A DNA stretch of 64,000 bases from Gammaproteobacteria bacterium. Its GTDB lineage: Bacteria > Pseudomonadota > Gammaproteobacteria > Ga0077536. The stretch covers positions 30,867 through 94,866 of the forward strand of contig SHZJ01000007.1 in the NCBI GenBank assembly GCA_009692365.1, read 5' to 3'. The notes beneath the pieces were generated by a model. That model did not search any database. It had not been told where the DNA came from and saw nothing but the letters and a program-made list of their open reading frames with translations. The position numbers were made by a program, and so were the translations under genes. Numbering within the stretch: position 1 is the stretch's first letter; each line of letters begins with the position of its first letter. Shown here one piece after another: positions 26,095 through 50,424 of this stretch.

Positions 26095-27579
26095 TTACGA
26101 GCGCAAAAGCGTCAGTACCATGCTTGGCTGTTGGTTGGCCTGGGCTACCATGGCAATCGACGCCTGCGCTAGGACTTGGGCCTTGGTCATCGCGGCTGTT
26201 TCGGCCGCGAAGTCGGTATCCATGATCCGGCCGCGCGCGGTAATGATGTTCTCCTTCATAACCTCGAGGTTGTTACTAATCGCCTCAAAGCGGCCGGCCA
26301 GAGCGCCCAACTCAGCACGCTGAGCGTTGACCTCGTTCAGCGCGGCATCAAAGGTCAACATCGCCAGATTGGCCGAGGCCGCGCTGGTGACGACCTGCGA
26401 CGCGAGCGTGGAATTGACCAGCGTGGCAGCGGAAGTACTGGCCCCGGTCAAGGCTGCCCCGGTTGCGGTACTGTTGAAGGTAACCGTGAGGTCGCCCAAG
26501 TCGTCGTTCAGCACGATGGCACCGTTCGCGTGCGCCCCCACCGAACTGGTGGTGAAGAATGTGCCGATGCCGGCGTCGATGCTGGTGTTCGCAATCACAG
26601 AGATCGCGGCCCCGTCAGTGTTGGTCAACACGATAGAGGAGTTGGCGGGAGTGTTGAGATCGGCCACTATCGAGGCTGTGACCCCCGTCTGGGCGCTCAC
26701 GGCGTTTATCTGGATTATCAGGTTAGACGCCATAGTCCCGTTACTGGCGGCGGCCGCTACTGTGCCGATGGTTACCCCGTTGATGCTAAGCGCCCCGGAG
26801 GCAAGGCCATCAGTCACAGCGGCGGTTGCGCCGGCTGTGCCGTAGGCAGTGCCTACGCTGCCGTTACCGTAGCTAAAGGCAATCACGCCATTAGTGGCGC
26901 TTGCTGCGTTGAGCGCGTCAAGTTTCAGGTCAGAGTTGGAGTTAGCGACGACGTTGCCGACGCTTGTGGCGTCAACCGTGCTGCTACTCAAAGCGTGGCG
27001 ATAGGAGGTGCCGATGTTGTCCGCCAAGCCCTGGCTGCTCAGCGCCGAAATGGCTGCGTAGCTGGTTGCAATGCCCATTTGGTCAGTGGAGAGGTCGCTT
27101 ATCGCGATGTTAACGTCCTCGTTTACCATCGTGCCCACTTGGATGTTGCCGCGAAAACTACCGTCCAACAGCAGTTCGCCGTTATAACGGGCCTGATTCA
27201 CCGTGCGGGTCATTTCCGCCAGAATACTCTGCACTTCTTCATTGAGGGAGTCGCGGTCTTCCGCGGTGTTGTAGCTGGCCGCCTGCACCGCAAGATCCTT
27301 TGCGCGGATTATGTTCGCGGTCATTTCGTTCAACGCGCCTTCCGCAGTTTGCACGATGGACAGGCCATCCATGGTGTTGCGCTGGGCGACCGTCGTGCCC
27401 TGAATTTGGTTAGTCATGCGAACCGCGATGGAGAAGCCTGCAGCGTCGTCTTTGGCGCTGTTGATGCGAAGGCCGGACGACAAACGCTCCATCGACGTCG
27501 TTAGGGCGTTTTGAGTACGATTCAAGGAACGCTGCGCCATCATCGACGCCTGATTGGTCATGATTGAAGTAGTAGTCAC
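26095..27579 (-). CDS. fliC: Flagellin (494 aa, Ser/Thr/Ala-rich variable domain)
   Basis: ERLSSGLRINSAKDDAAG, QTAEGAL, RAELGA, RIMDTDFAAE, AQANQQP. GTG start with GGAG RBS. Confidence 0.97.
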   Translation of the reverse strand: MTTTSIMTNQASMMAQRSLNRTQNALTTSMERLSSGLRINSAKDDAAGFSIAVRMTNQIQGTTVAQRNTMDGLSIVQTAEGALNEMTANIIRAKDLAVQAASYNTAEDRDSLNEEVQSILAEMTRTVNQARYNGELLLDGSFRGNIQVGTMVNEDVNIAISDLSTDQMGIATSYAAISALSSQGLADNIGTSYRHALSSSTVDATSVGNVVANSNSDLKLDALNAASATNGVIAFSYGNGSVGTAYGTAGATAAVTDGLASGALSINGVTIGTVAAAASNGTMASNLIIQINAVSAQTGVTASIVADLNTPANSSIVLTNTDGAAISVIANTSIDAGIGTFFTTSSVGAHANGAIVLNDDLGDLTVTFNSTATGAALTGASTSAATLVNSTLASQVVTSAASANLAMLTFDAALNEVNAQRAELGALAGRFEAISNNLEVMKENIITARGRIMDTDFAAETAAMTKAQVLAQASIAMVAQANQQPSMVLTLLRS

Positions 27580-27704: not shown

Positions 27705-27854
27705 AGGATTTTTTAAATTATTTTTTTGGCCGGGGTTTGCCAAACCGCGAGTCACAGGGCTGGGCGCAGGCGGGCGTGTAGCCCGTAGGGTGTCGACCCG
27801 CACGGGGGCTACTTTAGCCCCCGGCAGTCTGAGTGAGGCCGGGGCTTGCTGCCG

Positions 27855-27870
27855 TGGCGCGCTTATTGCA
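27855..27870 (+). promoter_or_regulatory. Sigma54 promoter for the GT41 pair
   Basis: TGGCGCGCTTATTGCA (GG-N10-GC). Confidence 0.65.
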
Positions 27871-27880
27871 GTTTCTGCGC

Positions 27881-30046
27881 ATGAAACCCACTCGCGTCAG
27901 CCCCTCACGTAACGACCGCTGTCCCTGTGCCAGCGGTCGAAAATTTAAACGATGCTGCCTGAACAAGGCCGTGCCGCCCGCGGCCGACCAGCGCTTTGCG
28001 GCCGCCTTAGCCTACGAACGCCGTGGGGAGCACGCGGCCGCTGCGGCCATTTATGCGGAAATTCTCGTCCACACACCCAGTCATGTGCCATCGCTGCAGG
28101 CGCTCGGGCTGGTTTATTTCGGGCGCGGCGAGCGCGTAGCGGCGCTCACCTTGCTGCGCCACGCTTGCGAGCTTTCGCCCGAGGATGCCGAACTGCAGAA
28201 CAACCTTGGTGCGGTGCTCAATGAGGACCGGCAGGTCGAGGAGGCTATCGTCCACCTCCATAAAGCCATCACGCTGCGGCCCCAGTACGCCGCGGCGCAC
28301 AATAATCTGGGTAGCGCGCTGCGCGCCTACGGCAAACTGGCCGAAGCTGAACACTGCTACCGTGAGGCGCTCCGACTGCACCCGGATTTTCCGCCGGCGA
28401 TTATCAATCTGGGCAGCGTGCTACGCACGGCAGGACGCCTGACGGACGCGCTTGGCTGCTATCGCCGGGCCTTGGAGCTGATGCCATCGAGCTACGAAGG
28501 CTGGAGCAATCTCGGCAATATCCTGATGGAAACCGACCGTTTGGCCGAGTCGTTGCCCTATTTTGAGGAGGCACTGCGCCTAGCGCCGCACAGCGCGCTG
28601 GCAAACTACAATTTCGCGAACGCGCTAAAAGAGTCCGGTGCGCGCGACCGTGCTGGCCAGTTACTGGCGCGGGCGGTTGAGCTGGACCCCTCGCTAGCCG
28701 AGGCACATAACAATTTGGGTAATATTCGTCGCGAACAGGGGTGTTTGCCGCAAGCGCTCGCCTGTTTTAGTCGGGCGCTGGCAGTGCGGCCGGCGTATCA
28801 AACGGCGCATAGCAATTTGCTGTTTACCACGGCGTATATGGATGACCTCGCGCCAGCGGACATCTTTGCACTGCACTGCGGCTGGGCTGACTTGCAAGCG
28901 GCACGGGTGCCGCCACCCGCGCCGCACGACAATCTGCGCGACCCCCACAAGCGCTTAAAAATTGGCTATGTCTCACCGGATTTTCGCACCCACTCCTGCG
29001 CGCTATTTTTGGCGCCGCTGTTGTATTCGCATAACCGCTCGGTGGTGGAGGTCTACGCCTATGCTGAGGTCGCCAAACCCGACGCGGTCACCGTGCAGTT
29101 GCAGGGTCAGGTGGATGTTTGGCGCAGTACGGTGGGTTTGAGCGACGAAGAATTGGCGTCATTAATCCGTCATGACGGCATTGATGTGCTGGTCGATCTG
29201 GCAGGCCACACCGCCAATAACCGCTTATTAGCCTTGGCCCGCAAACCCGCGCCGGTGCAGGCAACCTATCTGGGTTACCCGGCGACTACCGGCTTGCCCG
29301 CCGTGGACTGGCGGATCACCGATGCCGTCACCGAGCCGCCGGGCCTAACCGAGCGCTACTACACGGAGCAGTTGTATCGTCTGCCGCACAGCCTGTGGTG
29401 CTACTTGGCGCCCTCCGACATGGGCGCGATCCCGCCGCTGCCGGCGCTCTCGCGGGGTTATGTGACCTTCGGCTCACTCAACAATTACGCCAAAGTGGGC
29501 GCGCGGGTGGTGGCTTTGTGGGCGGCGGTGCTCACGGCCGTGCCCAGCGCCCGTTTGCGGATCATGACTGTCCCGGAGGGCGAAACTCAGGCCCTGCTCA
29601 TGGCGCAGTTCGCGGCCTTGGGTATCGCGCGTGAGCGTCTGGACCTGCTCGACCGGGTGCCGCGCGATCGCTATATCCGCAGTGGTGAGGAAATCGACAT
29701 TGCGCTCGACCCTTTCCCGTGTAACGGCGGTACGACGACTTGTGACGCGCTGTGGATGGGCTTGCCGGTGGTGGCGCTCAAGGGCAACACGTTTTTGTCA
29801 CGGGCCAGTCTCAGCGTGCTGAACGCCGCCGGTTATCCGCAGTTCGCCGCCGCGCACGAAGCGCAATATATTGCGCTCTGCGTGGCGTTGGCGGGCGACC
29901 TTAACCACCTGGCTGAAATTCGCCAGAGCCTGCGCGCGCGGATGGTGGCCTCGGCACTGATGGATGTGGTGGGCTTTACCAGCGATATGGAAGCGGCTTA
30001 TCGGGCGATGTGGGTTGCGTGGTGCGAACGGCCAACCGCGCCGTGA
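27881..30046 (+). CDS. SEC-C + TPR + GT41 (O-GlcNAc transferase/SPINDLY-like) glycosyltransferase
   Basis: RNDRCPCASGRKFKRCC; repeated NNLG TPRs; RLKIGYVSPDFRTH, DLAGHT, PAPVQATYLGYPATTG, FGSLNNYAK, LDPFPCNGGTTTCDALWMGLPVV. Confidence 0.9.
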   Translation: MKPTRVSPSRNDRCPCASGRKFKRCCLNKAVPPAADQRFAAALAYERRGEHAAAAAIYAEILVHTPSHVPSLQALGLVYFGRGERVAALTLLRHACELSPEDAELQNNLGAVLNEDRQVEEAIVHLHKAITLRPQYAAAHNNLGSALRAYGKLAEAEHCYREALRLHPDFPPAIINLGSVLRTAGRLTDALGCYRRALELMPSSYEGWSNLGNILMETDRLAESLPYFEEALRLAPHSALANYNFANALKESGARDRAGQLLARAVELDPSLAEAHNNLGNIRREQGCLPQALACFSRALAVRPAYQTAHSNLLFTTAYMDDLAPADIFALHCGWADLQAARVPPPAPHDNLRDPHKRLKIGYVSPDFRTHSCALFLAPLLYSHNRSVVEVYAYAEVAKPDAVTVQLQGQVDVWRSTVGLSDEELASLIRHDGIDVLVDLAGHTANNRLLALARKPAPVQATYLGYPATTGLPAVDWRITDAVTEPPGLTERYYTEQLYRLPHSLWCYLAPSDMGAIPPLPALSRGYVTFGSLNNYAKVGARVVALWAAVLTAVPSARLRIMTVPEGETQALLMAQFAALGIARERLDLLDRVPRDRYIRSGEEIDIALDPFPCNGGTTTCDALWMGLPVVALKGNTFLSRASLSVLNAAGYPQFAAAHEAQYIALCVALAGDLNHLAEIRQSLRARMVASALMDVVGFTSDMEAAYRAMWVAWCERPTAP

Positions 30047-32427
30047 ACGTGCAAGATTTGCTGCAGCAGGCTCTGGCGCAGCACCAGTCCGGGCGTTTTG
30101 AGGAGGCCGCGGCAAGCTGTCGAGAAGTCCTTAAGGCACACCGCGACAACGTCGATGCCTTGCATTTTCTGGCGCTCACGCAGCGTGAGCGCGGCGCGTT
30201 TGAGGAAGCGCAAGGCCTGCTGCTGAGGGTGGTTAAGCTGCGCCCGAAGTTTGCGGCAGCGCACGGAAATCTGGGTTTGGTCTACGCCGACCGGCAGCTT
30301 TTTCCGCAAGCGGACGCGGCTTACCGGCGCGCGTTAGCGCTTAACGCCGAGCTGCCAGAAACTTGGTTTAATCTGGGTAATCTGCTGCGCGCTACCGGCA
30401 AGCCCGAGGAGGCCATCGTCTGCTATGGCCACGCGCTGCAACGCAAAGCGCTCGCCGGTGCACAGCATAATTTGGCCGAGGCGCTGATCGAGACCGGCGA
30501 ACCTGCGCGCGCGGTGGCACATTTTCGGGCCGCGCTGGAATTGGCACCGCAATCCCCTTTGATTTGGCACCGGCTGGGCAGCACGCTGCAGTCGTTGGGG
30601 GCTTTTGAAGCAGCGCTTCCCTGCCTGTTCCGCGCCACGCAACAGGCACCCGATTCCGCCGCAGCACAGAACGACTTCGGCAACGCACTCAACGATTTTG
30701 GCCGCACACCAGAAGCCGCCGCCTGCTACGAGCGCGCGCTGGCGCTTAAGCCCGGCTTGATCGAAGCGTGGAACAATCTTGGCAACGCGCAGCGCAAGCT
30801 GGGGCTGCTGCGCGAGGCCGAAGCCTCTTTCCGGCGTGCGCTGGCCGAAAAACCCGACTTCGCTGAGGCCTATCTCAATCTCGGCATCGTGCTCAAAATT
30901 GCCAACCGGGCAGAGGAGGCAATTTATTGCTTCCGGGAGGCGCTGATCCATCAGCCTGGTTTGGTTCAGGCGCATAACAATTTGGGGGTCGTGTTTACCG
31001 AAGGTGGCCGACACGCCGAGGCTATCGCCGAACTCCAGAGCGCGCTTGCCATCCGGCCGCAGTTTGCCGAGGCCTGGAACAATCTGGGTAATGTTTACAA
31101 AAATGCGGGCGAACTGCCGGCCGCGCTAGAGGCTTTTGCCCAGGCGCTCGAGTACCAGCCCGATTACACCGTTGCGCACAGTAATTATTTGTTCACGCTT
31201 AATTTTATCGACGGTGTGAGCGCGGACCACATTGCGCAGGCGCATCGTGACTGGGGCCTTCGTCATGTCGCAGGTATCGCCGTAGGCGCGCCGTACGCGA
31301 ACTCTCCAGAGCCCCACCGGCGGCTTAAAATTGCCTATATCTCGCCAGATTTTCGCCATCACGCCTGCGCGTTTTTTATCGAGCCACTGCTGCGCGAGCA
31401 CGACCGCTCGCAGGTGGAGGTGTACGCCTACGCGGAACTCGCCCAGCCCGACGCCATGACGCTGCGCCTGAAAAAGCACGTGGACGTGTGGCGCAGTATT
31501 ACCGGGTTGCCCGATCAACAGGTGGCCGAGGTGATTCGCGCCGATGGCATCGATGTGCTCATTGACCTTGCGGGCCATACCGCCAATGGCCGCTTGCTGA
31601 CCTTGGCGCGCCGGCCCGCGCCGGTGCAGGTGACCTATCTGGGTTATCCCGCTACCACCGGGCTGACGGCCATTGATTGGCGCTTGACCGATGGCGTGAC
31701 GGAGCCGACCGAGTGCAGCGACGCTTGGTACACCGAGCAGCTGTACCGTCTGCCCCATAGCCTGTGGTGTTATCAACCGTTCGCGGACATGGGCCCAAGC
31801 ACGGCCTTGCCGGCGCTGGCCCGCGGGCAGATAAGTTTTGGCTCCTTTAACAGCTACGCCAAAATTGGGCCACGCGTGGTGGCGCTGTGGGCGGCAGTTC
31901 TGCGCGCCTTGCCTAACGCTCGTCTGGTGATGATCACGGTGCCCGCGGGGGACGCGCAAGAATTACTCTGGCAGGAGTTTGCCCGCCTGGAGATCCCCCG
32001 TGAACGGGTGGCGTTGCACGAGCGCTTACCGCGCGCAGCTTATGTGAAGCTGTTTTCTGAGGTAGATATTGCCCTTGACCCGTTTCCTTGCAACGGTGGC
32101 ACGACCACCTGTGATGCGCTCTGGATGGGACTGCCGGTGGTGGCCTTGCAAGGTGACACGTTTTTATCGCGCGCGAGTTTGAGCGTTCTCACCGCCGCCG
32201 GGTGCGCGGAATTTTCTGCCCGCGACGAGCGTGCTTATGTCGAGCGCTGTGTTGGGTTAGCCGCCGATTGGGATGCCCTGAGTACACTTCGCCACGGCTT
32301 GCGGGCCCGCCTAAGCGCCTCGGCGCTGCTCAACGCACCGGCCTTTGCACGTGACATCGAGTTGGCTTATCGCCACATGTGGATGGCGTGGTGCGCCGGT
32401 ACGGCCCCCCCGGTCGCATCCGCTTAG
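30043..32427 (+). CDS. Second TPR + GT41 glycosyltransferase
   Basis: Longer TPR array and the same GT41 motifs (YISPDFRHH, DLAGHT, YLGYPATTG, NGGTTTCDALWMG). GTGA overlap with the first gene. Confidence 0.9.
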   Translation: MNVQDLLQQALAQHQSGRFEEAAASCREVLKAHRDNVDALHFLALTQRERGAFEEAQGLLLRVVKLRPKFAAAHGNLGLVYADRQLFPQADAAYRRALALNAELPETWFNLGNLLRATGKPEEAIVCYGHALQRKALAGAQHNLAEALIETGEPARAVAHFRAALELAPQSPLIWHRLGSTLQSLGAFEAALPCLFRATQQAPDSAAAQNDFGNALNDFGRTPEAAACYERALALKPGLIEAWNNLGNAQRKLGLLREAEASFRRALAEKPDFAEAYLNLGIVLKIANRAEEAIYCFREALIHQPGLVQAHNNLGVVFTEGGRHAEAIAELQSALAIRPQFAEAWNNLGNVYKNAGELPAALEAFAQALEYQPDYTVAHSNYLFTLNFIDGVSADHIAQAHRDWGLRHVAGIAVGAPYANSPEPHRRLKIAYISPDFRHHACAFFIEPLLREHDRSQVEVYAYAELAQPDAMTLRLKKHVDVWRSITGLPDQQVAEVIRADGIDVLIDLAGHTANGRLLTLARRPAPVQVTYLGYPATTGLTAIDWRLTDGVTEPTECSDAWYTEQLYRLPHSLWCYQPFADMGPSTALPALARGQISFGSFNSYAKIGPRVVALWAAVLRALPNARLVMITVPAGDAQELLWQEFARLEIPRERVALHERLPRAAYVKLFSEVDIALDPFPCNGGTTTCDALWMGLPVVALQGDTFLSRASLSVLTAAGCAEFSARDERAYVERCVGLAADWDALSTLRHGLRARLSASALLNAPAFARDIELAYRHMWMAWCAGTAPPVASA

Positions 32428-32557: not shown

Positions 32558-33439
32558 CTAGATGCGGTCAAACCACGGGATATGCCATTCCCGCCACGCG
32601 GCGCGCTGGGCGCGCGGTGAAAAAATCTGCCAATGGGCGAGTGTTTGTGGGCGCCACGTGACCGCCGTGTTCGCCACGAGCCAGCGTTGAAAATCGCTGG
32701 CCAAACGCTCGTTCACCCACACCCGGCTGGCACCGCGCTGTAGACGCTGCCAGAGTTCAGGAAAACTTTGGGGCGCGCCGGCCACCTCGTAGACGTAGCG
32801 GGTGGTGTCGTCTTGCCCCACGAGTGCATAGCCGGGCGTGGGGCCGGTCACGCTGACCACGGCGCTGGACGGGGCCGGCAGCGGTAGTGCACGCCACGCG
32901 GCGGCATCGCGCAGCACCCGCTGGGTTGAGCAGGCTTGCTGGATGGCCTCGAGTACGGGCCAACCGGGGTGCGGGGTTGGGGGGGAGGGCCGGGTGGTGG
33001 CGGGTGCCAAGGAACCCAGAACGCCCTGGTCGTTGGGTATCCAACCTAAGCGCTGATAAAAGCCCTCTAGCCCGCTCCACAGCACGGCAAAGTCGTAACC
33101 CTGTTGGGCCAGTTGCGCCACCAGCGCGCTGAGCAGTGCGCCCGCGTGGCCCCGGCCACGGGCGGCTGGCTGGGTGTACACCATCCCCACCATGGCACCG
33201 CGAAAGTGTTCCTCCGCAACCAGCCAATCGAAGGGACGCACGGCGCAACACGTGAGGATGTCGCCATGCAATTTGCCAACGTGGAGCTGGTCGAGGTGGG
33301 TCGCGCCGAGTGCGCTGGGATAACGGGCCGCCAGCGAACCGTGGCGACCCCGTGTGGTGATAAAGGTTGCGTCGAGGGCGGCTAACAGGGTGGGCCATTC
33401 GGCTAGCGAACAAGTCCCAAGGGTCAGGTTGTTGCTCAC
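32558..33439 (-). CDS. GNAT N-acyltransferase with a C-terminal extension
   Basis: VGMVYTQPAARGRGHAGALL (motif A), FYQRLGW. GTG overlaps the upstream stop. Confidence 0.8.
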   Translation of the reverse strand: MSNNLTLGTCSLAEWPTLLAALDATFITTRGRHGSLAARYPSALGATHLDQLHVGKLHGDILTCCAVRPFDWLVAEEHFRGAMVGMVYTQPAARGRGHAGALLSALVAQLAQQGYDFAVLWSGLEGFYQRLGWIPNDQGVLGSLAPATTRPSPPTPHPGWPVLEAIQQACSTQRVLRDAAAWRALPLPAPSSAVVSVTGPTPGYALVGQDDTTRYVYEVAGAPQSFPELWQRLQRGASRVWVNERLASDFQRWLVANTAVTWRPQTLAHWQIFSPRAQRAAWREWHIPWFDRI

Positions 33440-34557
33440 CAGCCGGCGGCGATACAGCGTGCGATGCGCGTGAGATCCTCTGGGCTCAGCCACCAGCCAC
33501 AGGGGATGCACAGGTTATCTGCGTCGAAGGCTTCTACCCCCGGCAGGGGCTGGCCAGGATCCGCAAAGCAACTGTAACGGTCGTTGCGCAAGTGCAGCCG
33601 CTGGGCGGCAATGCCGTGGCGGTGCAGTTTGTTGATGAGGCTCGCCCGCCCACTGGCGCGCAGCGCATAAACCCAGTGGGCCGATTGTGCCTCGGGGTCG
33701 CGTTGCAGCCGGGTGATGCCGGGCACGTTGGCCAAAGCTGCGTCTAGCCACGCCGCGTTGGCGCGATGCCGGGCGAGGGTGTCGTCGACTTCGCGCAATT
33801 GGGCGAGCGCAAGCCCGGCGGTGAGGTCGCTCATGGCGCAGCTATAGCCCGGTTGCTGGATGTCGCTGTCGGGGTTGAGGTCGCCACCGGGGAGCCGAAA
33901 ACTCGCCTGATGGATATTGAACCGGCGGAGTTGGCGGGCGCTCTGCGCGCTCGCCGCCGCGCCGCAAAACAACGCGCCCCCTTCACCGGCGGCTAGGTGG
34001 CTCACCGCGTAAAAAGAATAAACACAGAAGTCGCTGCCCGTGGCACCCAGGGCACGCCCCCGGAAGCTGGCCGCGAACGCGCCCGAAGCTTCCTCAATCA
34101 ACGGCAGATCCAGCAAATTGGCGGCGGCTTGCAAGGCCGCGAGCGGGCCGACATCGCCAGCCCAGTGGTAGTGAATAATGGCTTTGGCGCGCCGGCTGCG
34201 CTGGTTTTTCAGGGCTTGAGGGTCGAGCATGCCAGTGTTGGGATCGATGTCGCACCACACCGGACGGGCCTGCAAATTGGCGATGGGCATGGTGGTCGAC
34301 AGGCAGGTTAGCGGGGAGAGCAGCACTTCGTCGCCGGGTGTCACACCGCACAAACGCAGGGCAAGCGTTAGCGCCCCCGCGCGGTCGCTGGTGGCGACAC
34401 AGTGCGGGTTGCCGATGCGCTCGCCGAGACGGGTTTCGAATTCATGCACGCGCGGGCCGGTGGCCAGTTGCCCGGAGGCCAATACGTGGGCTATGGCGTC
34501 GGCGGCCCCGGCCGCGATGCGGCCTTTAAAGAGCGAAATGGGTGGCTCACCAGCCAC
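33436..34557 (-). CDS. DegT/DnrJ/EryC1/StrS-family paralogue lacking the PLP lysine
   Basis: GPRVHEFE, GDEV, PVWCDID. IEEASGA replaces IEDAAHA and SFYAVSHLAAGEGG has Ser at the Lys position. GTG start 34557. Confidence 0.85.
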   Translation of the reverse strand: MAGEPPISLFKGRIAAGAADAIAHVLASGQLATGPRVHEFETRLGERIGNPHCVATSDRAGALTLALRLCGVTPGDEVLLSPLTCLSTTMPIANLQARPVWCDIDPNTGMLDPQALKNQRSRRAKAIIHYHWAGDVGPLAALQAAANLLDLPLIEEASGAFAASFRGRALGATGSDFCVYSFYAVSHLAAGEGGALFCGAAASAQSARQLRRFNIHQASFRLPGGDLNPDSDIQQPGYSCAMSDLTAGLALAQLREVDDTLARHRANAAWLDAALANVPGITRLQRDPEAQSAHWVYALRASGRASLINKLHRHGIAAQRLHLRNDRYSCFADPGQPLPGVEAFDADNLCIPCGWWLSPEDLTRIARCIAAGW

Positions 34558-35644
34558 GCCGAAGCACCGCCACGATGTGCTCGCGGGCGGCATCGTCCAC
34601 CCACCATCCGCAGGGGATATGCAGCATCCGGGCATAAAAGCGATCCAAGCCCGGTAACTCGCGACGGCTCGCCGCAAATACCGTGTGTCGGTCGTTGCGC
34701 TGGTGGGCTTTAGAGTTGCCGATACCGTGCGCCGAGAGGTGGCGCGCCAAGCCGTCTGGGTCGTCGCAAAGCAGCGTATAGAACCAGTACGAAGGTTCGG
34801 CGGCAGGTTCGAATTGGCACCCGGACAAACCCGGAATGCGCGGCAGGGAGTCGTCAAAGTAGCGACCATTGGCCTGGTGGCGGGTCAGCGCCGGGGCGAT
34901 ATGCGCCAACTGCACCAGCCCAATCGTCGCGTTGACGTTATTCATGTGGTACTTGAAGCCGACTTCGGTCACATCCACGCTGGTGCGCGAGGCGTGGCGG
35001 TCGATCCCAAACCAGCGCAGGCGGCGACCGCGCGGCAGGAGGCTGGCGTCAGCGCAGGTCAACATACCGCCATCCACGGTGGTCATGTGTTTGATCGCCT
35101 GCAGGGAGAACATGACAAACGCCGAGTGGTTCCCAATGGCGAGTCCAGCGTAGCGCGCGCCGAGGGCATGGGCCGCGTCTTCGATCACGGGCAGACCATA
35201 GCGGGCCGCGAGCGCCGTGATACTGGCCAATGGCGCCGGAATGCCGCCGTAGTGCACCACCAAAATGGCGCGGGTGCGCGGGGTAATCGCCGCTTCGATG
35301 CTAGCCGCGGTGAGATTGCCGTTCGCGGGGTCGACATCCGCCCAGCGAGGGATGCCGCCGGCGTGGAGAATGGCAAGGTTGGTGGGCTCGGCGGTCATTG
35401 CCGTGCTCACGACTTCGTCTCCGCGTTGCACCCCGGCCAGCAGTAGCGCGATATGCAGGGCTGCCGTGCCCGAATAAAACGCGAGGCAGCGCGGGTTGCC
35501 CAGCCACTCGCCGAAGCGCGCCTCGAACTCGGCAACCGGCTGGCCCTCGCTGATTTGCCCGCTATAAAGCACCTCTTGCAGGCGCGGCATCAGCGCTGCG
35601 GGCGGCGCCATCAGCACTTTAAACAGCGGAATGTCGGACTGCAC
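34547..35644 (-). CDS. DegT/DnrJ/EryC1/StrS sugar aminotransferase
   Basis: SGTAALHIAL, VHYGG, IEDAAHALG, SLQAIKHMTTVDGG (catalytic Lys present). Start uncertain (35644 or 35671). Confidence 0.9.
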   Translation of the reverse strand: MQSDIPLFKVLMAPPAALMPRLQEVLYSGQISEGQPVAEFEARFGEWLGNPRCLAFYSGTAALHIALLLAGVQRGDEVVSTAMTAEPTNLAILHAGGIPRWADVDPANGNLTAASIEAAITPRTRAILVVHYGGIPAPLASITALAARYGLPVIEDAAHALGARYAGLAIGNHSAFVMFSLQAIKHMTTVDGGMLTCADASLLPRGRRLRWFGIDRHASRTSVDVTEVGFKYHMNNVNATIGLVQLAHIAPALTRHQANGRYFDDSLPRIPGLSGCQFEPAAEPSYWFYTLLCDDPDGLARHLSAHGIGNSKAHQRNDRHTVFAASRRELPGLDRFYARMLHIPCGWWVDDAAREHIVAVLRRGW

Positions 35645-35648
35645 CGGC

Positions 35649-36656
35649 CTAGAACTTGGCAAATTCGCCATCGGCCATTTCCATTATTTCGAACTCTCGG
35701 TCCGCCAGCGCAAGCATGCGTTGCACTTCGTCGGTGCCTGTGAGGTGGTCGCCGGAGGCAAACTCGGCCTCAATTTCTTGGTAGCGGTCGGTGCTCCACC
35801 AAGGCTGCACCACGTAGTAGTCGCCGTAGTCTCGGCCCCGGACGAGTTCTTCTTCGGAGACCAGAATTTCGTGCAGTTTTTCGCCGGGCAAAATGCCGAT
35901 GACTTTATAAGCGAACGGCCGGCCGGCTTCGGCCGCCAGCACCTGCGCGATATCGGTCACTTTGGCTGCCAGCGCCTTGCGGACAAAAATCTCCCCCCCT
36001 TGGGTGTGTTCGGCGGCATACAGCACGAGATCAATGGCCTCGTTCAGGGTGAGCAGGAAGCGGGTCATGCGCTCATCGGTAATGGTCAGGGTTTGGCCTA
36101 AAGCAAGCTGGCGTCGGAAAAACGGCACCACCGAGCCGCGTGATCGCAGCACATTGCCGTAGCGCACGCAGCACAGCCGAGTGCCCTTATTGGCGCGCGA
36201 AAGATTGCCTTTAAGCACGATGCGCTCTTGCAGCGCTTTGGTCATGCCCATCACGTTGACCGGCTTGACCGCTTTATCGGTGCTGATCATCACGAAGGTT
36301 TCTACCCGCTGCCGCACCGCGCACTCCACGAGGTTTTCAGCCCCCAACACATTGGTGCGCACAGCTTCCATGGGGTGTTGCTCGCAGGTGGGCACCTGCT
36401 TGAGGGCGGCCGCGTGGAACACGATGTCGATGCCTTGCATGGCTTCGTCTACGACTTCGCGGTTGCGGATGTCGCCGATGACGAAAGTGAGGTCTTTTCG
36501 CCCCTGATAAAAGACCCGCATGTCGTACTGTTTTTTCTCGTCGCGCGACAGCACCCGCACTTCGCGGACGCCGGCGTTGAGCAGTCGGCGGACGACAAAA
36601 TTGCCGAATGACCCGGTGCCGCCGGTGACAAGAACCGTTTTGTGACGATAGTCCAT
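35649..36656 (-). CDS. UDP-GlcNAc 4,6-dehydratase, CapE/WbjB/FnlA-like
   Basis: TGGTGSFG, SRDEKKQ, FHAAALKQVP, STDKAV, MGMTK (MxxxK in place of YxxxK), RYGNV.SRGSV, PGEKLHE. Confidence 0.88.
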   Translation of the reverse strand: MDYRHKTVLVTGGTGSFGNFVVRRLLNAGVREVRVLSRDEKKQYDMRVFYQGRKDLTFVIGDIRNREVVDEAMQGIDIVFHAAALKQVPTCEQHPMEAVRTNVLGAENLVECAVRQRVETFVMISTDKAVKPVNVMGMTKALQERIVLKGNLSRANKGTRLCCVRYGNVLRSRGSVVPFFRRQLALGQTLTITDERMTRFLLTLNEAIDLVLYAAEHTQGGEIFVRKALAAKVTDIAQVLAAEAGRPFAYKVIGILPGEKLHEILVSEEELVRGRDYGDYYVVQPWWSTDRYQEIEAEFASGDHLTGTDEVQRMLALADREFEIMEMADGEFAKF

Positions 36657-47708: not shown

Positions 47709-48065
47709 TTAAGCCACGGCGGATGGACGTTTTTTTTCTACCAGAATTTCCCGGTAGCGGGTTGGCCCAGCGTTGCGTGCGCTGTGGGTGGCAGGCACCC
47801 GCAGGCCTTTGTCGTCAGAGGAGATAAGCTCGCCGTTGGCGCAATGAAACGCGAAGCTCGCGCCGGCGAGGGCGTCGAAACCACCCAGCGGCTCGTCGTT
47901 CGCATCAAAAACTTCGAGATGCGTGCCGTCCAGCACATAAAAAACGTAATCCAGATGGTGCGTGTGGCAGGGCGTGGTGGCGCCCGGCTCTAGTGCAAAT
48001 TCCCAAATGATGAGGTGTTCGTCCTCAAAGACTTTTTGGGTGCCAACTTCATCTTTTATGCTCAT
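47709..48065 (-). CDS. Small cupin-domain protein
   Basis: VFEDEHLIIWEFALEPG..HTHHLDY...H..RNAG...EILVE. Confidence 0.75.
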   Translation of the reverse strand: MSIKDEVGTQKVFEDEHLIIWEFALEPGATTPCHTHHLDYVFYVLDGTHLEVFDANDEPLGGFDALAGASFAFHCANGELISSDDKGLRVPATHSARNAGPTRYREILVEKKRPSAVA

Positions 48066-48067
48066 TT

Positions 48068-49075
48068 TCAGGCTCCTTGGTGGTTGCCGCGCACATCGTC
48101 GCTGTGCGCCAGCAGGGTGTCGAAATAACGGATGGTGCGGGCTAAGCCCTCGCGCAACGCAACCCGCGCCGTCCAGCCTAGCGTGTTGCCCGCCAGGGTG
48201 ATGTCAGGACAGCGGTGCCGGGGGTCATCGCTGGGCAGCGGGCGATAGGTCAGGGTGGAGCGTGAGCCGGTGAGCTCGATCACTAGCGCTGCCAGCTGCG
48301 CGATGGTGAATTCGCTGGGGTTGCCCAGATTCACCGGGCCTACGACTGTGGCGGGCCCGTCCATCAGGGCGATGAGGCCCTCAATGAGATCGTCAACGTA
48401 GCAGAAAGAACGGGTTTGCTGGCCATCGCCGAACAACGTGATGGGCTGGTGGCGCAGCGCCTGCACAATAAAATTGGACACCACCCGGCCGTCGTCAGGG
48501 TGCATGCGCGGCCCATAGGTATTAAAAATTCGCGCTACTTTGATCGCGACGCCGTGCTGTCGGTGGTAATCGAAGAACAGCGTTTCGGCACAGCGTTTGC
48601 CTTCGTCGTAGCAAGCGCGCAGGCCGATCGGATTGGTATGGCCCCAATAGCTTTCGACTTGCGGATGCTGATTGGGGTGGCCGTAGACCTCGCTGGTGGA
48701 CGCCTGCAGAATTTTGGCATCCGTGCGCAGCGCGAGATCCAGCAGATTAATGGCCCCGTGCACGCAGGTTTTGATCGTTTGCACCGGGTTGCGCTGGTAG
48801 TGCACCGGCGAGGCGGGGCAGGCGAGATTGTAGATTTCGTCCACCTCCACGTGCAGCGGCAGCGTTACATCATGACGCAAGAATTCAAACCTCGGGTGGG
48901 TCTGGAACGACCGAATATTGTCCTTGGAGCCGGTAAAGAGGTTGTCGGCGCACAGCACTTCGTCGCCCCGGGCCAACAGGCGTTCCGTTAAGTGGGAGCC
49001 GAGGAAGCCGGCACCGCCGGTAATCAGGATGCGCCGAAGACTTTTTGGGCGGCTGTTACTAGGTAGTTTATTCAT
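48068..49075 (-). CDS. UDP-glucuronate decarboxylase (UDP-xylose synthase, Uxs-like)
   Basis: [57 protein letters not shown]. Confidence 0.92.
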
Positions 49076-49095
49076 TGTTGGCGTTCAACCGAAAG

Positions 49096-49112
49096 CTGGC
49101 ACATGCGTTGCA
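49096..49112 (+). promoter_or_regulatory. Sigma54 promoter for fliK
   Basis: CTGGCACATGCGTTGCA, near-consensus. Confidence 0.8.
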
Positions 49113-49149
49113 ATCTAGCAGTCATGCACCCAACACGGAACCCGTGACC

Positions 49150-50424
49150 ATGCCGAACGCCATTACCAACTTGCCGCCCGCCAGCGCGCCCCAGATCGAG
49201 AAAAGCCCATCAATCCAGAGCGATAGCGCCGCTTCGACGAGCGGTGAGGCGCGAGATTTCGCCGCAACACTGCGCGCGCTCGGTGATGCCAAGACGACTG
49301 ATGCGGCAAAGATCGACCCCGCGGCGGCAACGCCGGTCCCCGAACTGCCGCTGCTTGCCGCGCCCGCGACCATGACCGACGCCATGACCGACGCCATGAC
49401 CGGCGCCATGACCGACGCCATGACCGGCGCCATGACCGGCGCCATGACCGACGCCATGACCGACGCCATGACCGACGCCATGACCGACGCCATGACCGAC
49501 CCCATGACCGACGCCATGACCGACCCCATGACCGGTCCCAGTGCGGTAGCGGTCGCCAGCGTGGGTGATCCCGACGCGGCGGCGGTGGCCGTCAGCGCGC
49601 TGAACTTACCGCTGGTGCTACCCCGCGTGTTTATCCCGGCAGGCTCCCCACAGCTGCGGGTCGCGGCACAGTTTGCGGCACAGTTTGCGGCCGCAGCGAC
49701 CGGCCAATTAGCGGCCAACTCGCCCGCCAATAGCCCGCAGGCGGGCCGTGGGCCACAGCCCGCGGTGACCCCGGTAGGCCCGTCCCCGGACGACGCGCCG
49801 GCGCCGCCCGACGCCTCGCCCGCGGGGTCAGCCCCACCCGCCTTTAAACTGGCTGCGCTGCTGTCCGGCGGACCGCCACGGGACCTCGATGTCCAGCGCC
49901 TGGGCAGCGACACCCCCCCCGTGGGCTTGACCCCCGCGCAGACGGCGCCAGGGGCAGCCCTACACGAACGCGGCCCGACCGGGGTGCTGCACTTGGATAC
50001 TCAGTTGCCGGTAAACACACCGCGGTTCGCCGAGGGCTTGGGGCAGCAGGTCGTGGTGTTGGCCCAAAACGGGGTCCACCAAGCCCAGATGTCCCTCAAT
50101 CCGCCGGAGTTGGGGCCCATCGATGTCCGGGTTACGTTCCATCACAACGAGGTCAGCGTGCAAATTGCGGCCGCCAGCGGTCTGACCCGCGAGACCATCC
50201 AAGAGGCCTTACCCCGGCTGCGCGAACTGATGGATGCGGCCGGGGTCCGGCTCAACGACGCGGGGGTGTTTGCCCAATTGCCGCAACGCGAACAGGCCCC
50301 GCAGGGTCAGGTCCGCAGCGACTGGCTGATGGGTCAGGGTCAGGGCGACAACCTCGCCTTGGATACCGCCGCCATGGGCCCCACGTTGCTGCGGCGGAGC
50401 GGCCTTATCGATGCCTACGCCTGA
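49150..50424 (+). CDS. fliK: Hook-length control protein FliK
   Basis: Low-complexity Ala/Pro N-region; T3S4 domain LNPPELGPIDV...LPRLRE; ends IDAYA; lies before fliL. Confidence 0.92.
   Translation: MPNAITNLPPASAPQIEKSPSIQSDSAASTSGEARDFAATLRALGDAKTTDAAKIDPAAATPVPELPLLAAPATMTDAMTDAMTGAMTDAMTGAMTGAMTDAMTDAMTDAMTDAMTDPMTDAMTDPMTGPSAVAVASVGDPDAAAVAVSALNLPLVLPRVFIPAGSPQLRVAAQFAAQFAAAATGQLAANSPANSPQAGRGPQPAVTPVGPSPDDAPAPPDASPAGSAPPAFKLAALLSGGPPRDLDVQRLGSDTPPVGLTPAQTAPGAALHERGPTGVLHLDTQLPVNTPRFAEGLGQQVVVLAQNGVHQAQMSLNPPELGPIDVRVTFHHNEVSVQIAAASGLTRETIQEALPRLRELMDAAGVRLNDAGVFAQLPQREQAPQGQVRSDWLMGQGQGDNLALDTAAMGPTLLRRSGLIDAYA
49372..49539 (+). repeat. 14 x 12-bp in-frame tandem repeat ATGACCG[A/G]C[G/C]CC encoding MT[D/G][A/P]
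   Basis: Counted directly: 8 MTDA, 3 MTGA, 2 MTDP and 1 MTGP units. Confidence 0.97.

Follow-up and report, generated by a model that had tools for sequence, protein, structure and literature searches.

Can a DegT-type sugar aminotransferase that has lost the lysine holding its cofactor still have a task, and if so, which one? The question is raised by two adjacent genes, here called DegT1 and DegT2, in a 64,000-nucleotide stretch of DNA from a member of the Gammaproteobacteria (GTDB lineage Ga0077536; assembly GCA_009692365.1, contig SHZJ01000007.1, positions 30,867 to 94,866), referred to below as the window. DegT2 has a serine where DegT1 has the lysine that forms a Schiff base with pyridoxal 5'-phosphate (PLP), for which an earlier note, made from the letters of the window, had suggested an active/inactive heterodimer or a non-transaminase chemistry using the adjacent histidine. 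We favour a different answer, with somewhat less than even confidence: DegT2 may be a PLP-free nucleotide-sugar 3,4-ketoisomerase of a four-gene module that passes a 3-keto sugar to DegT1. The features of the two genes are as follows.

34547..35671, minus strand: DegT1, intact sugar aminotransferase of 374 amino acids, orthologue of WeiP/WekE, with Lys194, Asp165, His168, SGT at 67-69 and Lys240
35090..35092, minus strand: AAA codon of the DegT1 Schiff-base Lys194, read from the sequence; kept in 71/71 DegT1-type proteins
34952..34954, minus strand: DegT1 Lys240 (amino-donor, partner-facing), aligned with ArnB Lys241 (alignment to 1mdo)
33436..34557, minus strand: DegT2, full-length paralogue of 373 amino acids without a PLP site, GTG start at 34557, orthologue of WeiQ/WekF, candidate 3,4-ketoisomerase
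34000..34002, minus strand: AGC codon of DegT2 Ser186 at the place of the PLP lysine, from sequence comparison with DegT1
34378..34386, minus strand: DegT2 D58-R59-A60 at the place of the SGT phosphate cradle, from alignments
33847..33918, minus strand: long loop of DegT2, residues 214-237, with F220-R221 and G225-D226-L227-N228; 7 residues longer than the DegT1 loop
33574..33594, minus strand: small-domain sugar-site motif of DegT2, H322-x-R324-x-D326-x-Y328, from conservation in the DegT2-type set

Loss of the cofactor site in DegT2

The domain PF01041 covers the whole length of both proteins (224.9 bits over residues 19-369 in DegT2), which are 36% identical in a pairwise alignment. DegT1 carries the motifs IEDAAHA and SLQAIKHMTTVDGG, with Lys194 encoded by AAA at 35092-35090, and DegT2 the motifs IEEASGA and SFYAVSHLAAGEGG, with Ser186 encoded by AGC at 34002-34000. 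This contrast, which the earlier note had drawn, is borne out by the sequence, as is its claim that the change is no single-base error: two genomes (L011 and L045) that are 95% identical in DegT2 carry the same serine, so that Ser186 is not a sequencing error. The cofactor site of DegT2 has suffered further losses, with Glu156, Gly159 and D-R-A at the place of SGT. The note had read the latter motif as SDR; the motif is indeed lost, but the reading was one residue off, since S67-G68-T69 of DegT1 aligns with D58-R59-A60 of DegT2. Hence the Schiff-base lysine, the SGT cradle and the histidine or glutamine at the PLP hydroxyl, all required of an active fold-type I sugar aminotransferase, are absent from DegT2. 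Its only lysines are at positions 11, 117, 125 and 310, and a substitute lysine within 181-194, which would have undone the argument, is present in 0/110 relatives without a lysine at 186. In DegT1, the lysine, aspartate, histidine, serine, SGT and partner-facing lysine are all present and are retained in 70-71 of 71 DegT1-type proteins.

The pLDDT (predicted local distance difference test) is 95.9 for the AlphaFold model of DegT2, which has a TM-score of 0.94 to AtmS13 (4xau), and 92.6 for DegT1. The C-terminal tail said to be shared by DegT1 and DegT2 is present in both, but characterises the broader clade of AtmS13/CalS13-like proteins rather than the pair, and the range 33436..35644 given for the pair is too short, as the DegT1 start at 35671 falls outside it. 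The invariant Cys85 of DegT2 was considered as a new catalytic residue and rejected, because a cysteine is found there in 95% of other lysine-bearing relatives too. The active partner is itself unusual, in that residues 94-96 of DegT1 (window 35392-35384) read Ala-Glu-Pro at the place of the usual PLP-stacking aromatic residue; the alanine is present in 71/71 DegT1-type proteins, and the ring-stacking position Ala94 is mostly a cysteine in the wider clade.

Age of the loss and selection on the gene

Conservation was examined in 120 sequences, which consist of the DegT2 of the window and 119 of its 120 best matches (the database entry of the window itself being left out). At position 186, 57 of them have R, 37 N, 13 K, 10 S and 3 A, so a recent decay in a family whose close members all keep the lysine does not describe these data. 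A search of genomes yielded 58 loci; after three partial ones were dropped, the 55 full-length DegT2 proteins and that of the window have R (21), K (17), N (9), S (8) and T (1) at this position, as against a Schiff-base lysine in 53/53 DegT1 proteins of the same loci. On a tree of 188 sequences, position 186 has undergone at least 8 changes.

For residue comparisons, sets of 71 DegT1-type proteins, 130 DegT2-type proteins and 79 other lysine-bearing relatives were used, all 80% non-redundant, the last of mostly unestablished genomic context. None of the 20/130 DegT2-type proteins with Lys186 retains SGT, His/Gln159, Gln183, Trp212 or Lys239, from which it follows that the cofactor site died before the lysine drifted. 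The loss of the phosphate cradle, the histidine and the partner-facing cofactor residues is shown to be clade-wide, and the lysine to have decayed later and repeatedly.

Purifying selection on the lysine-less member, a check proposed in the earlier note, is seen in 16 close pairs, hand-picked and not independent, for which the pairwise ratio of nonsynonymous to synonymous substitution rates (dN/dS) is 0.085-0.239 for DegT2 and 0.053-0.23 for DegT1. That DegT2 might be a recently decaying duplicate draws on its faster divergence (mean distance 0.58 versus 0.42 for DegT1) and on the additional changes E156 and N214 in the window copy. This explanation is refuted by the alignment of 120 relatives, by the dN/dS of 0.17-0.18 for pairs on the window's own branch, by the presence of DegT2 in 12/12 other genomes of the genus searched, and by the tree, in which the clade reaches E. 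coli at 30% identity. The data thus support an old, family-wide loss of the lysine in a gene that is under purifying selection.

A chemistry like that of the ColD/E1 (RfbH) 3-dehydratases was also weighed. These enzymes have the DegT fold without the Schiff-base lysine, carry a fixed catalytic histidine there and bind pyridoxamine 5'-phosphate (PMP). DegT2 matches them weakly (ColD at E 6e-11; RfbH at 88.8 bits against a cut-off of 423) and does retain Asp156 (126/130) and Ser181 (127/130). However, the lysine position takes R, N, K, S, A or T, histidine is found at 186 in 0/120 and at 187 in just 30/120 sequences, and the chemistry once suggested for the adjacent histidine loses its footing. 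The related possibility that DegT2 is a second working aminotransferase, as its E. coli counterparts WeiQ and WekF are listed in a review (PMC7685785), can point to the lysine that survives in some members, yet all of these lack the rest of the site. Both are very improbable, and the known product also speaks against them: it shows no deoxygenation at C3 and carries a single new amine.

Partner-facing residues, sugar site and loops

The residues by which one subunit completes the site of the other were taken from Spr1654 (PMC5936713) and SerTA (PMC11726168) and mapped by way of an ArnB alignment; for Glu42, Trp220 and Arg225, this role is presumed from the segments in which they lie. In Spr1654, each site receives the flexible region and the N-terminal Gly28*/Ile30* from the neighbouring subunit, glutamate is bound by Lys257 (= ArnB Lys241), and His344-Tyr345 line the sugar (PMC5936713). 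In SerTA, the lysine-less Ser4 completes the site of Ser5 with Asn189*/Arg191*, and the R191A variant is inactive (PMC11726168). This precedent predicts a cross pattern, in which the dead subunit retains its partner-facing residues.

DegT1 and DegT2 resemble SerTA in being tandem genes of which one lacks the lysine, but the retention of partner-facing phosphate and donor residues (with a presumed correspondence to Asn189*/Arg191* of Ser4) is not seen in DegT2. Among the DegT2-type proteins, the residues of the own site are kept in 3/130 (Gly/Cys59), 0/130 (His/Gln159), 1/130 (Gln183) and 20/130 (Lys186), and those facing the partner in 5/130 (Glu/Gln33), 0/130 (Trp212), 8/130 (Arg217) and 0/130 (Lys239). 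In DegT1 numbering, Lys240 and Trp220 are thus retained in 0/130, and Lys240 in 71/71 DegT1-type proteins; the latter keep both sets in 68-71/71, except at position 217 (Arg in 31/71, otherwise Lys). Position 239 of DegT2 is S, N, A or G and never lysine, and position 241 is variable. The small-domain sugar site is nevertheless well kept in the DegT2-type set (H322 130/130, R324 108/130, D326 112/130, Y328 100%), and R324 and D326 are rarer in the DegT1-type set (32/71 each). The loop that is long in DegT2 has 23 residues in 130/130 DegT2-type and 16 in 71/71 DegT1-type proteins, as compared to 14-27 in the 79 others, and the long loop of DegT2 has an invariant motif of its own.

A plain active/dead heterodimer is doubtful on these grounds, because DegT2 has lost its partner-facing residues and kept its sugar site, and DegT1 keeps both faces. 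The heterodimer of the earlier note therefore retains a solved precedent in SerTA (PMC11726168) and is otherwise weakened. Such a pattern is consistent with a DegT1 that needs no partner and with a DegT2 whose own pocket would still bind a nucleotide sugar.

A more elaborate form gives DegT2 a place without catalysis in a DegT1:DegT2 heterodimer or tetramer of the SerTA kind, in which its long loop would complete and reshape the single site of DegT1, and DegT1 would aminate C3 of a keto sugar isomerised spontaneously or with the help of PMP. The loops are complementary without exception, Ser5 also has a shortened loop (PMC11726168), and DegT2 keeps Arg221 (130/130) as well as an acidic residue at 192 and, in most members, at 58, which could hold Lys240 of DegT1. 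On the other hand, DegT1 retains partner-facing residues that would face a dead pocket, Ser4 lacks the small domain that DegT2 has kept with a conserved sugar-site motif, and the loop of AtmS13 is just 2 residues longer than that of DegT1. We regard this arrangement as rather unlikely, though as the main rival of the isomerase.

Pairing of DegT1 and DegT2 across genomes

The two genes travel together: an intact DegT1 ends at most 355 bp upstream of DegT2 in 53/58 genome loci. Of the other five, four have less than 200 bp of upstream sequence and one genome has DegT1 on another contig. A GNAT gene lies next to DegT2 in 55 of the 58 loci, and an SDR (short-chain dehydrogenase/reductase) gene, GT41 genes and flagellar genes are near it in 29, 37 and 18. 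In three metagenome bins (L013, L021 and L045), the module and flagellar genes are close to those of the window. One locus (L086) has a DegT2-type gene and no DegT1 within 2.3 kb upstream.

Members of a distant branch, first met among cluster representatives, were retrieved from metagenomes by means of a pattern in which the lysine position is set to arginine. Among the best 80 of 120 such loci, 68 have a DegT1-type gene upstream, 10 have less than 600 bp of upstream sequence, and 2 have no such gene in 0.9 and 2.3 kb; many of the distant-branch loci hold flippase and glycosyltransferase genes. The two proteins also diverge together, with a Spearman coefficient of 0.86 over 105 pairs. This strict pairing and co-divergence speak for a subunit role, and a genome (G041; L070 and L074) in which the module is split over two contigs, SDR-DegT1 and DegT2-GNAT, speaks against it. 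Weak evidence in the same direction comes from 21 longer proteins, all at 38% identity or less and surveyed without a residue-by-residue reading, in which a fusion of DegT1 to DegT2 was not conspicuous. In the converse check, DegT1 was found in 3/121 genomes, all three with DegT2, which is too few cases, and matches among 400 genomes of the class were confined to G000, G021 and G022, plus one enzyme of another type (G520).

Long matches in two stretches, initially candidates for such fusions, were mostly a single DegT with an insert or tandem DegTs of other sub-families. Lysine-bearing DegT relatives with inserts of about 250-350 residues (P0250, P0268, P0273, P0274, P0275, P0288, P0291, P0292 and P0390) have them at a few recurring sites, several right before the lysine motif, and the inserts resemble inteins. 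P0256, P0313, P0347, P0380 and P0391 are natural tandem DegT-DegT fusions of other sub-families, and P0392-P0395 may be likewise.

Orthology with WeiP/WeiQ and WekE/WekF

A DNA search with a distant pair matched 29 of 5,426 E. coli genomes. Three of the clusters were inspected and proved to be the O-antigen loci of O109, O119 and O182, in all of which tandem DegT genes are accompanied by an SDR gene and by a gene for an acyl- or formyltransferase. The orders weiO-weiP-weiQ-wzx-weiS and wekD-wekE-wekF-wekG match that of the module, the names having been assigned by gene order against the supplement of PMC7685785. DegT1 of the window is 54/47/45% identical to the first DegT proteins of O109/O119/O182, and DegT2 30/29/30% identical to the second ones, all three of which have an arginine in place of the lysine. 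In the FastTree phylogeny of the 188 sequences, the DegT2-type clade includes WeiQ, WekF and the O182 protein with a support of 0.999 (81 tips), and the DegT1-type clade includes WeiP/WekE with 0.99 (39 tips); the representatives had been grouped by an earlier tree, so that a free test is provided only by where the proteins of the window and of E. coli fall. The tree confirms that DegT1 and DegT2 group, by sequence, as orthologues of WeiP/WeiQ, WekE/WekF and the O182 pair. A WeiP-type DegT, an SDR and an acyltransferase all adjoin DegT2 in the window, as in the WeiQ/WekF module, and a profile of 52 GNAT neighbours matches O109 WeiO at E 3e-18.

The SDR of the window is 48-50% identical to those of O109/O119/O182. 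It scores 323.6 bits with TIGR03589 and 321.1 bits with TIGR04130, both under the cut-off, as compared to 540-549 with TIGR04130 for the E. coli SDRs, and forms a clade of its own in a tree. Since it belongs to another sub-clade, the product in this case is likely a 2,3-diamino-trideoxyhexose whose configuration may differ from that in E. coli. The O182 cluster (L167:9147-14624) is organised as GNAT-DegT1-DegT2-wzx-SDR, with no rml, cupin or reductase gene annotated, and O182 presumably contains L-RhaNAc3NAc.

In PMC7685785, WeiP/WeiQ and WekE/WekF are proposed to make UDP-2,3-diamino-2,3,6-trideoxy-L-mannose; both proteins of each pair are listed as aminotransferases and WeiS/WekG as dehydratase/epimerase, the FnlA-like SDR of E. 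coli is credited with 3- and 5-epimerisation, and the pathways to UDP-L-RhaNAc3NAc and -3NFo are stated to lack experimental backing. The Acinetobacter baumannii homologues are named rhnABC, and the sugar is given as 2,3-diacetamido-2,3,6-trideoxy-L-mannose (PMC9676051). The WeiQ/WekF family is thus named in print, but as an aminotransferase. In the open literature, subscription papers and bioRxiv supplements aside, no paper was found that notes the lysine loss of WeiQ/WekF/Rhn or an isomerase or subunit role, although a printed remark may exist; the accessible part of a 2026 bioRxiv paper on K loci (10.64898/2026.07.20.739706) added nothing on function. The pseudaminic acid pathway (PseB-C-H-G-I-F) was rejected, the score with PseC being 193.6 bits against a cut-off of 423.5; the synthase PseI was not found in the genome of the window (G000, 93% complete), which argues that the module is not a pseudaminic acid route.

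A candidate 3,4-ketoisomerase

A 4,6-dehydratase leaves a 4-keto group, and the nitrogen at C2 comes from N-acetylglucosamine (GlcNAc). The known product has gained a single amine, located at C3, and bears a hydroxyl on C4 (PMC9676051). One transamination and one shift of the keto group from C4 to C3 are therefore needed. In the Fuc3N and Qui3N routes, the shift is performed by cupin isomerases (PMC7685785). FdtA was found in 0/15 module genomes searched, as compared to 2/26 other genomes, and no cupin was recognised between DegT1 and DegT2, where the inserts of L141, L142 and L150 were read by eye as other genes, two of them with hexapeptide-like repeats. DegT2 is conserved and without a job, and the isomerisation is without a protein; for this reason we favour the ketoisomerase, at just under even confidence, and infer the activity solely from the logic of the pathway.

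In the proposed sequence, the SDR would turn UDP-GlcNAc into a 6-deoxy-4-ulose with C5 inverted. DegT2 would hold the 4-ulose with Arg212/Arg221, the long loop and His322/Arg324/Asp326/Tyr328, and would shift the carbonyl to C3 through an enediol. DegT1 would then transaminate C3 with glutamate as the donor, and the GNAT would acetylate the product to a 2,3-diacetamido-2,3,6-trideoxyhexose (L-RhaNAc3NAc in O109, possibly a stereoisomer here). Two tetratricopeptide repeat (TPR)-GT41 enzymes would place the sugar on flagellin, a likely destination suggested by the gene context. A contact between DegT1 and DegT2 for channelling may add to the isomerase role.

Several points weigh against an isomerase. 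No unique catalytic pair is evident in DegT2: His322 is common to DegT1, the pocket residues 159, 183 and 186 vary (Y183 81%, R186 75%, in part an effect of how the distant set was picked), and the lineage of the window is more eroded than most (E156, S186, N214). The P450-like proteins EryCII and DesVIII were once called isomerases by the same argument from a gap and proved to be helper proteins. Asparagine at 239 in 36% of the DegT2-type proteins is a partial retention, the loops of 16 and 23 residues are complementary, the acids at 58 and 192 could serve the partner, and the short loop and lost small-domain arginine of DegT1 resemble Ser5 of the SerTA heterooligomer. An SDR is near DegT2 in just half of the genome loci (29/58), and that of the window is not a strict WeiS orthologue, so that the sugar may differ. 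The E. coli pathway is itself a proposal (PMC7685785). For mycosamine, a slow spontaneous isomerisation has been proposed, and 3-aminosugar pathways free of an isomerase gene exist (PMC8944477), which means that the missing step does not necessarily call for an enzyme.

The mycosamine case and the missing catalytic pair are the reasons why the SerTA-like subunit keeps an appreciable, if smaller, share of our belief, and cofactor-free roles such as binding a lesser one. In the latter case, DegT2 would bind the unstable keto-sugar nucleotide but not isomerise it, and would serve to carry or channel it, to epimerise it at C3/C5 or to sense it for feedback on the module. Its nucleotide-sugar-binding segments are retained, the losses are confined to cofactor and amino-donor residues, and 4-keto-6-deoxy intermediates are unstable (PMC5936713). 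Binding alone, however, leaves the keto shift unexplained, and an epimerase would duplicate the activity already credited to the E. coli SDR, which makes these roles unlikely.

Gene layout of the locus

The module is a minus-strand run of four genes: SDR (36656-35649), DegT1 (35671-34547), DegT2 (34557-33436) and GNAT (33439-32558). DegT2 was said to be full length and to overlap both neighbours, and both statements hold: the overlap with DegT1 is 11 bp long and, provided that the GNAT gene starts at GTG 33439, that with GNAT is 4 bp (GTGA). The run is flanked by a fliS-like gene and by two TPR-GT41 genes adjoining a flagellin-like open reading frame (ORF).

35649..36656, minus strand: SDR, PseB/FnlA-like UDP-GlcNAc 4,6-dehydratase, counterpart of WeiS/WekG from a separate sub-clade (PF02719, E 7e-99)
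32558..33439, minus strand: GNAT N-acetyltransferase, distant WeiO homologue (PF13527)
27833-30046 and 30010-32427, plus strand: two TPR and GT41 glycosyltransferase genes (PF13844 plus TPR)
26095..27579, minus strand: flagellin-like ORF, likely acceptor (translation and flagellar context), which we take to be flagellin-like from its termini

A scan of the window for promoters and terminators gave nothing informative. A small cupin ORF (PF07883, weak) and an SDR resembling nucleotide-sugar epimerases/decarboxylases lie at 47709-49075 on the minus strand, 12 kb from the module and opposite in strand to the flanking fliJ-like and fliK-like genes; the cupin ORF had no FdtA match in the genome search. 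Within the FliK-like ORF (49075-50424), short MTDA-type repeats follow one another in tandem.

Implications for annotation

The route to 2,3-diamino-2,3,6-trideoxy-L-mannose has two listed aminotransferases for one amine. The second of them would be unable to act as a PLP enzyme. If DegT2 is an isomerase, a protein of PLP fold would work without cofactor and found a new class of sugar ketoisomerases; this would also matter for other 3-aminosugar pathways in which an isomerase gene is missing. As a subunit, it would instead make the pair the second heterooligomeric sugar aminotransferase after SerTA, full length and of independent origin. The widespread WeiQ/WekF family would be wrongly annotated either way, and may be recognised by a 23-residue loop, an arginine in place of the tryptophan and the missing partner-facing lysine. 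The full proposal, to which we give rather less than even credence, is that a PLP-enzyme scaffold dropped its cofactor and became a non-cupin 3,4-ketoisomerase, that WeiQ/WekF are mis-annotated across O-antigen, capsule and flagellin-glycosylation loci, and that the flagellar GT41 branch puts a 2,3-diamino-trideoxyhexose on flagellin.

Comparison with known systems

The cupin 3,4-ketoisomerases FdtA and QdtA perform the reaction proposed for DegT2 but have an unrelated fold, and the search of 15 module genomes gave no FdtA. ColD/E1 differ from DegT2, in which the lysine position drifts and the phosphate site is blocked. The closest solved relatives of both DegT proteins by sequence are AtmS13 and CalS13 (PDB 4XAU, 4ZWV, 4ZAS), reportedly homodimeric C4 aminotransferases; AtmS13 is also close to DegT2 in fold (TM-score as above), but both have retained the lysine.

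SerTA (Ser4/Ser5 of Serratia sp. ATCC 39006; PDB 8Y96-8Y98) is alike in its tandem sugar-aminotransferase genes, one without lysine, and in an active partner with a shortened inter-subunit loop (PMC11726168). Ser4, however, is a protein of 24.6 kDa without a small domain that retains the partner-facing Asn/Arg needed for activity, whereas DegT2 is full length, has retained the small-domain sugar site and lost the partner-facing lysine. Sub-family and substrate also differ, and an independent origin is presumed.

In A. baumannii KL166/KL224, one of RhnA-C is probably the counterpart of DegT2. The nearest likeness is to WeiQ (O109) and WekF (O119), which come second in a tandem DegT pair that an SDR and an acyltransferase accompany, fall in the same clade (0.999), have the 23-residue loop and a replaced lysine, and have a partner, WeiP/WekE, that is orthologous to DegT1. 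They differ in their 29-30% identity, in having arginine rather than serine, in lying in an O-antigen cluster rather than in a flagellar/GT41 context, and in an SDR of another sub-clade.

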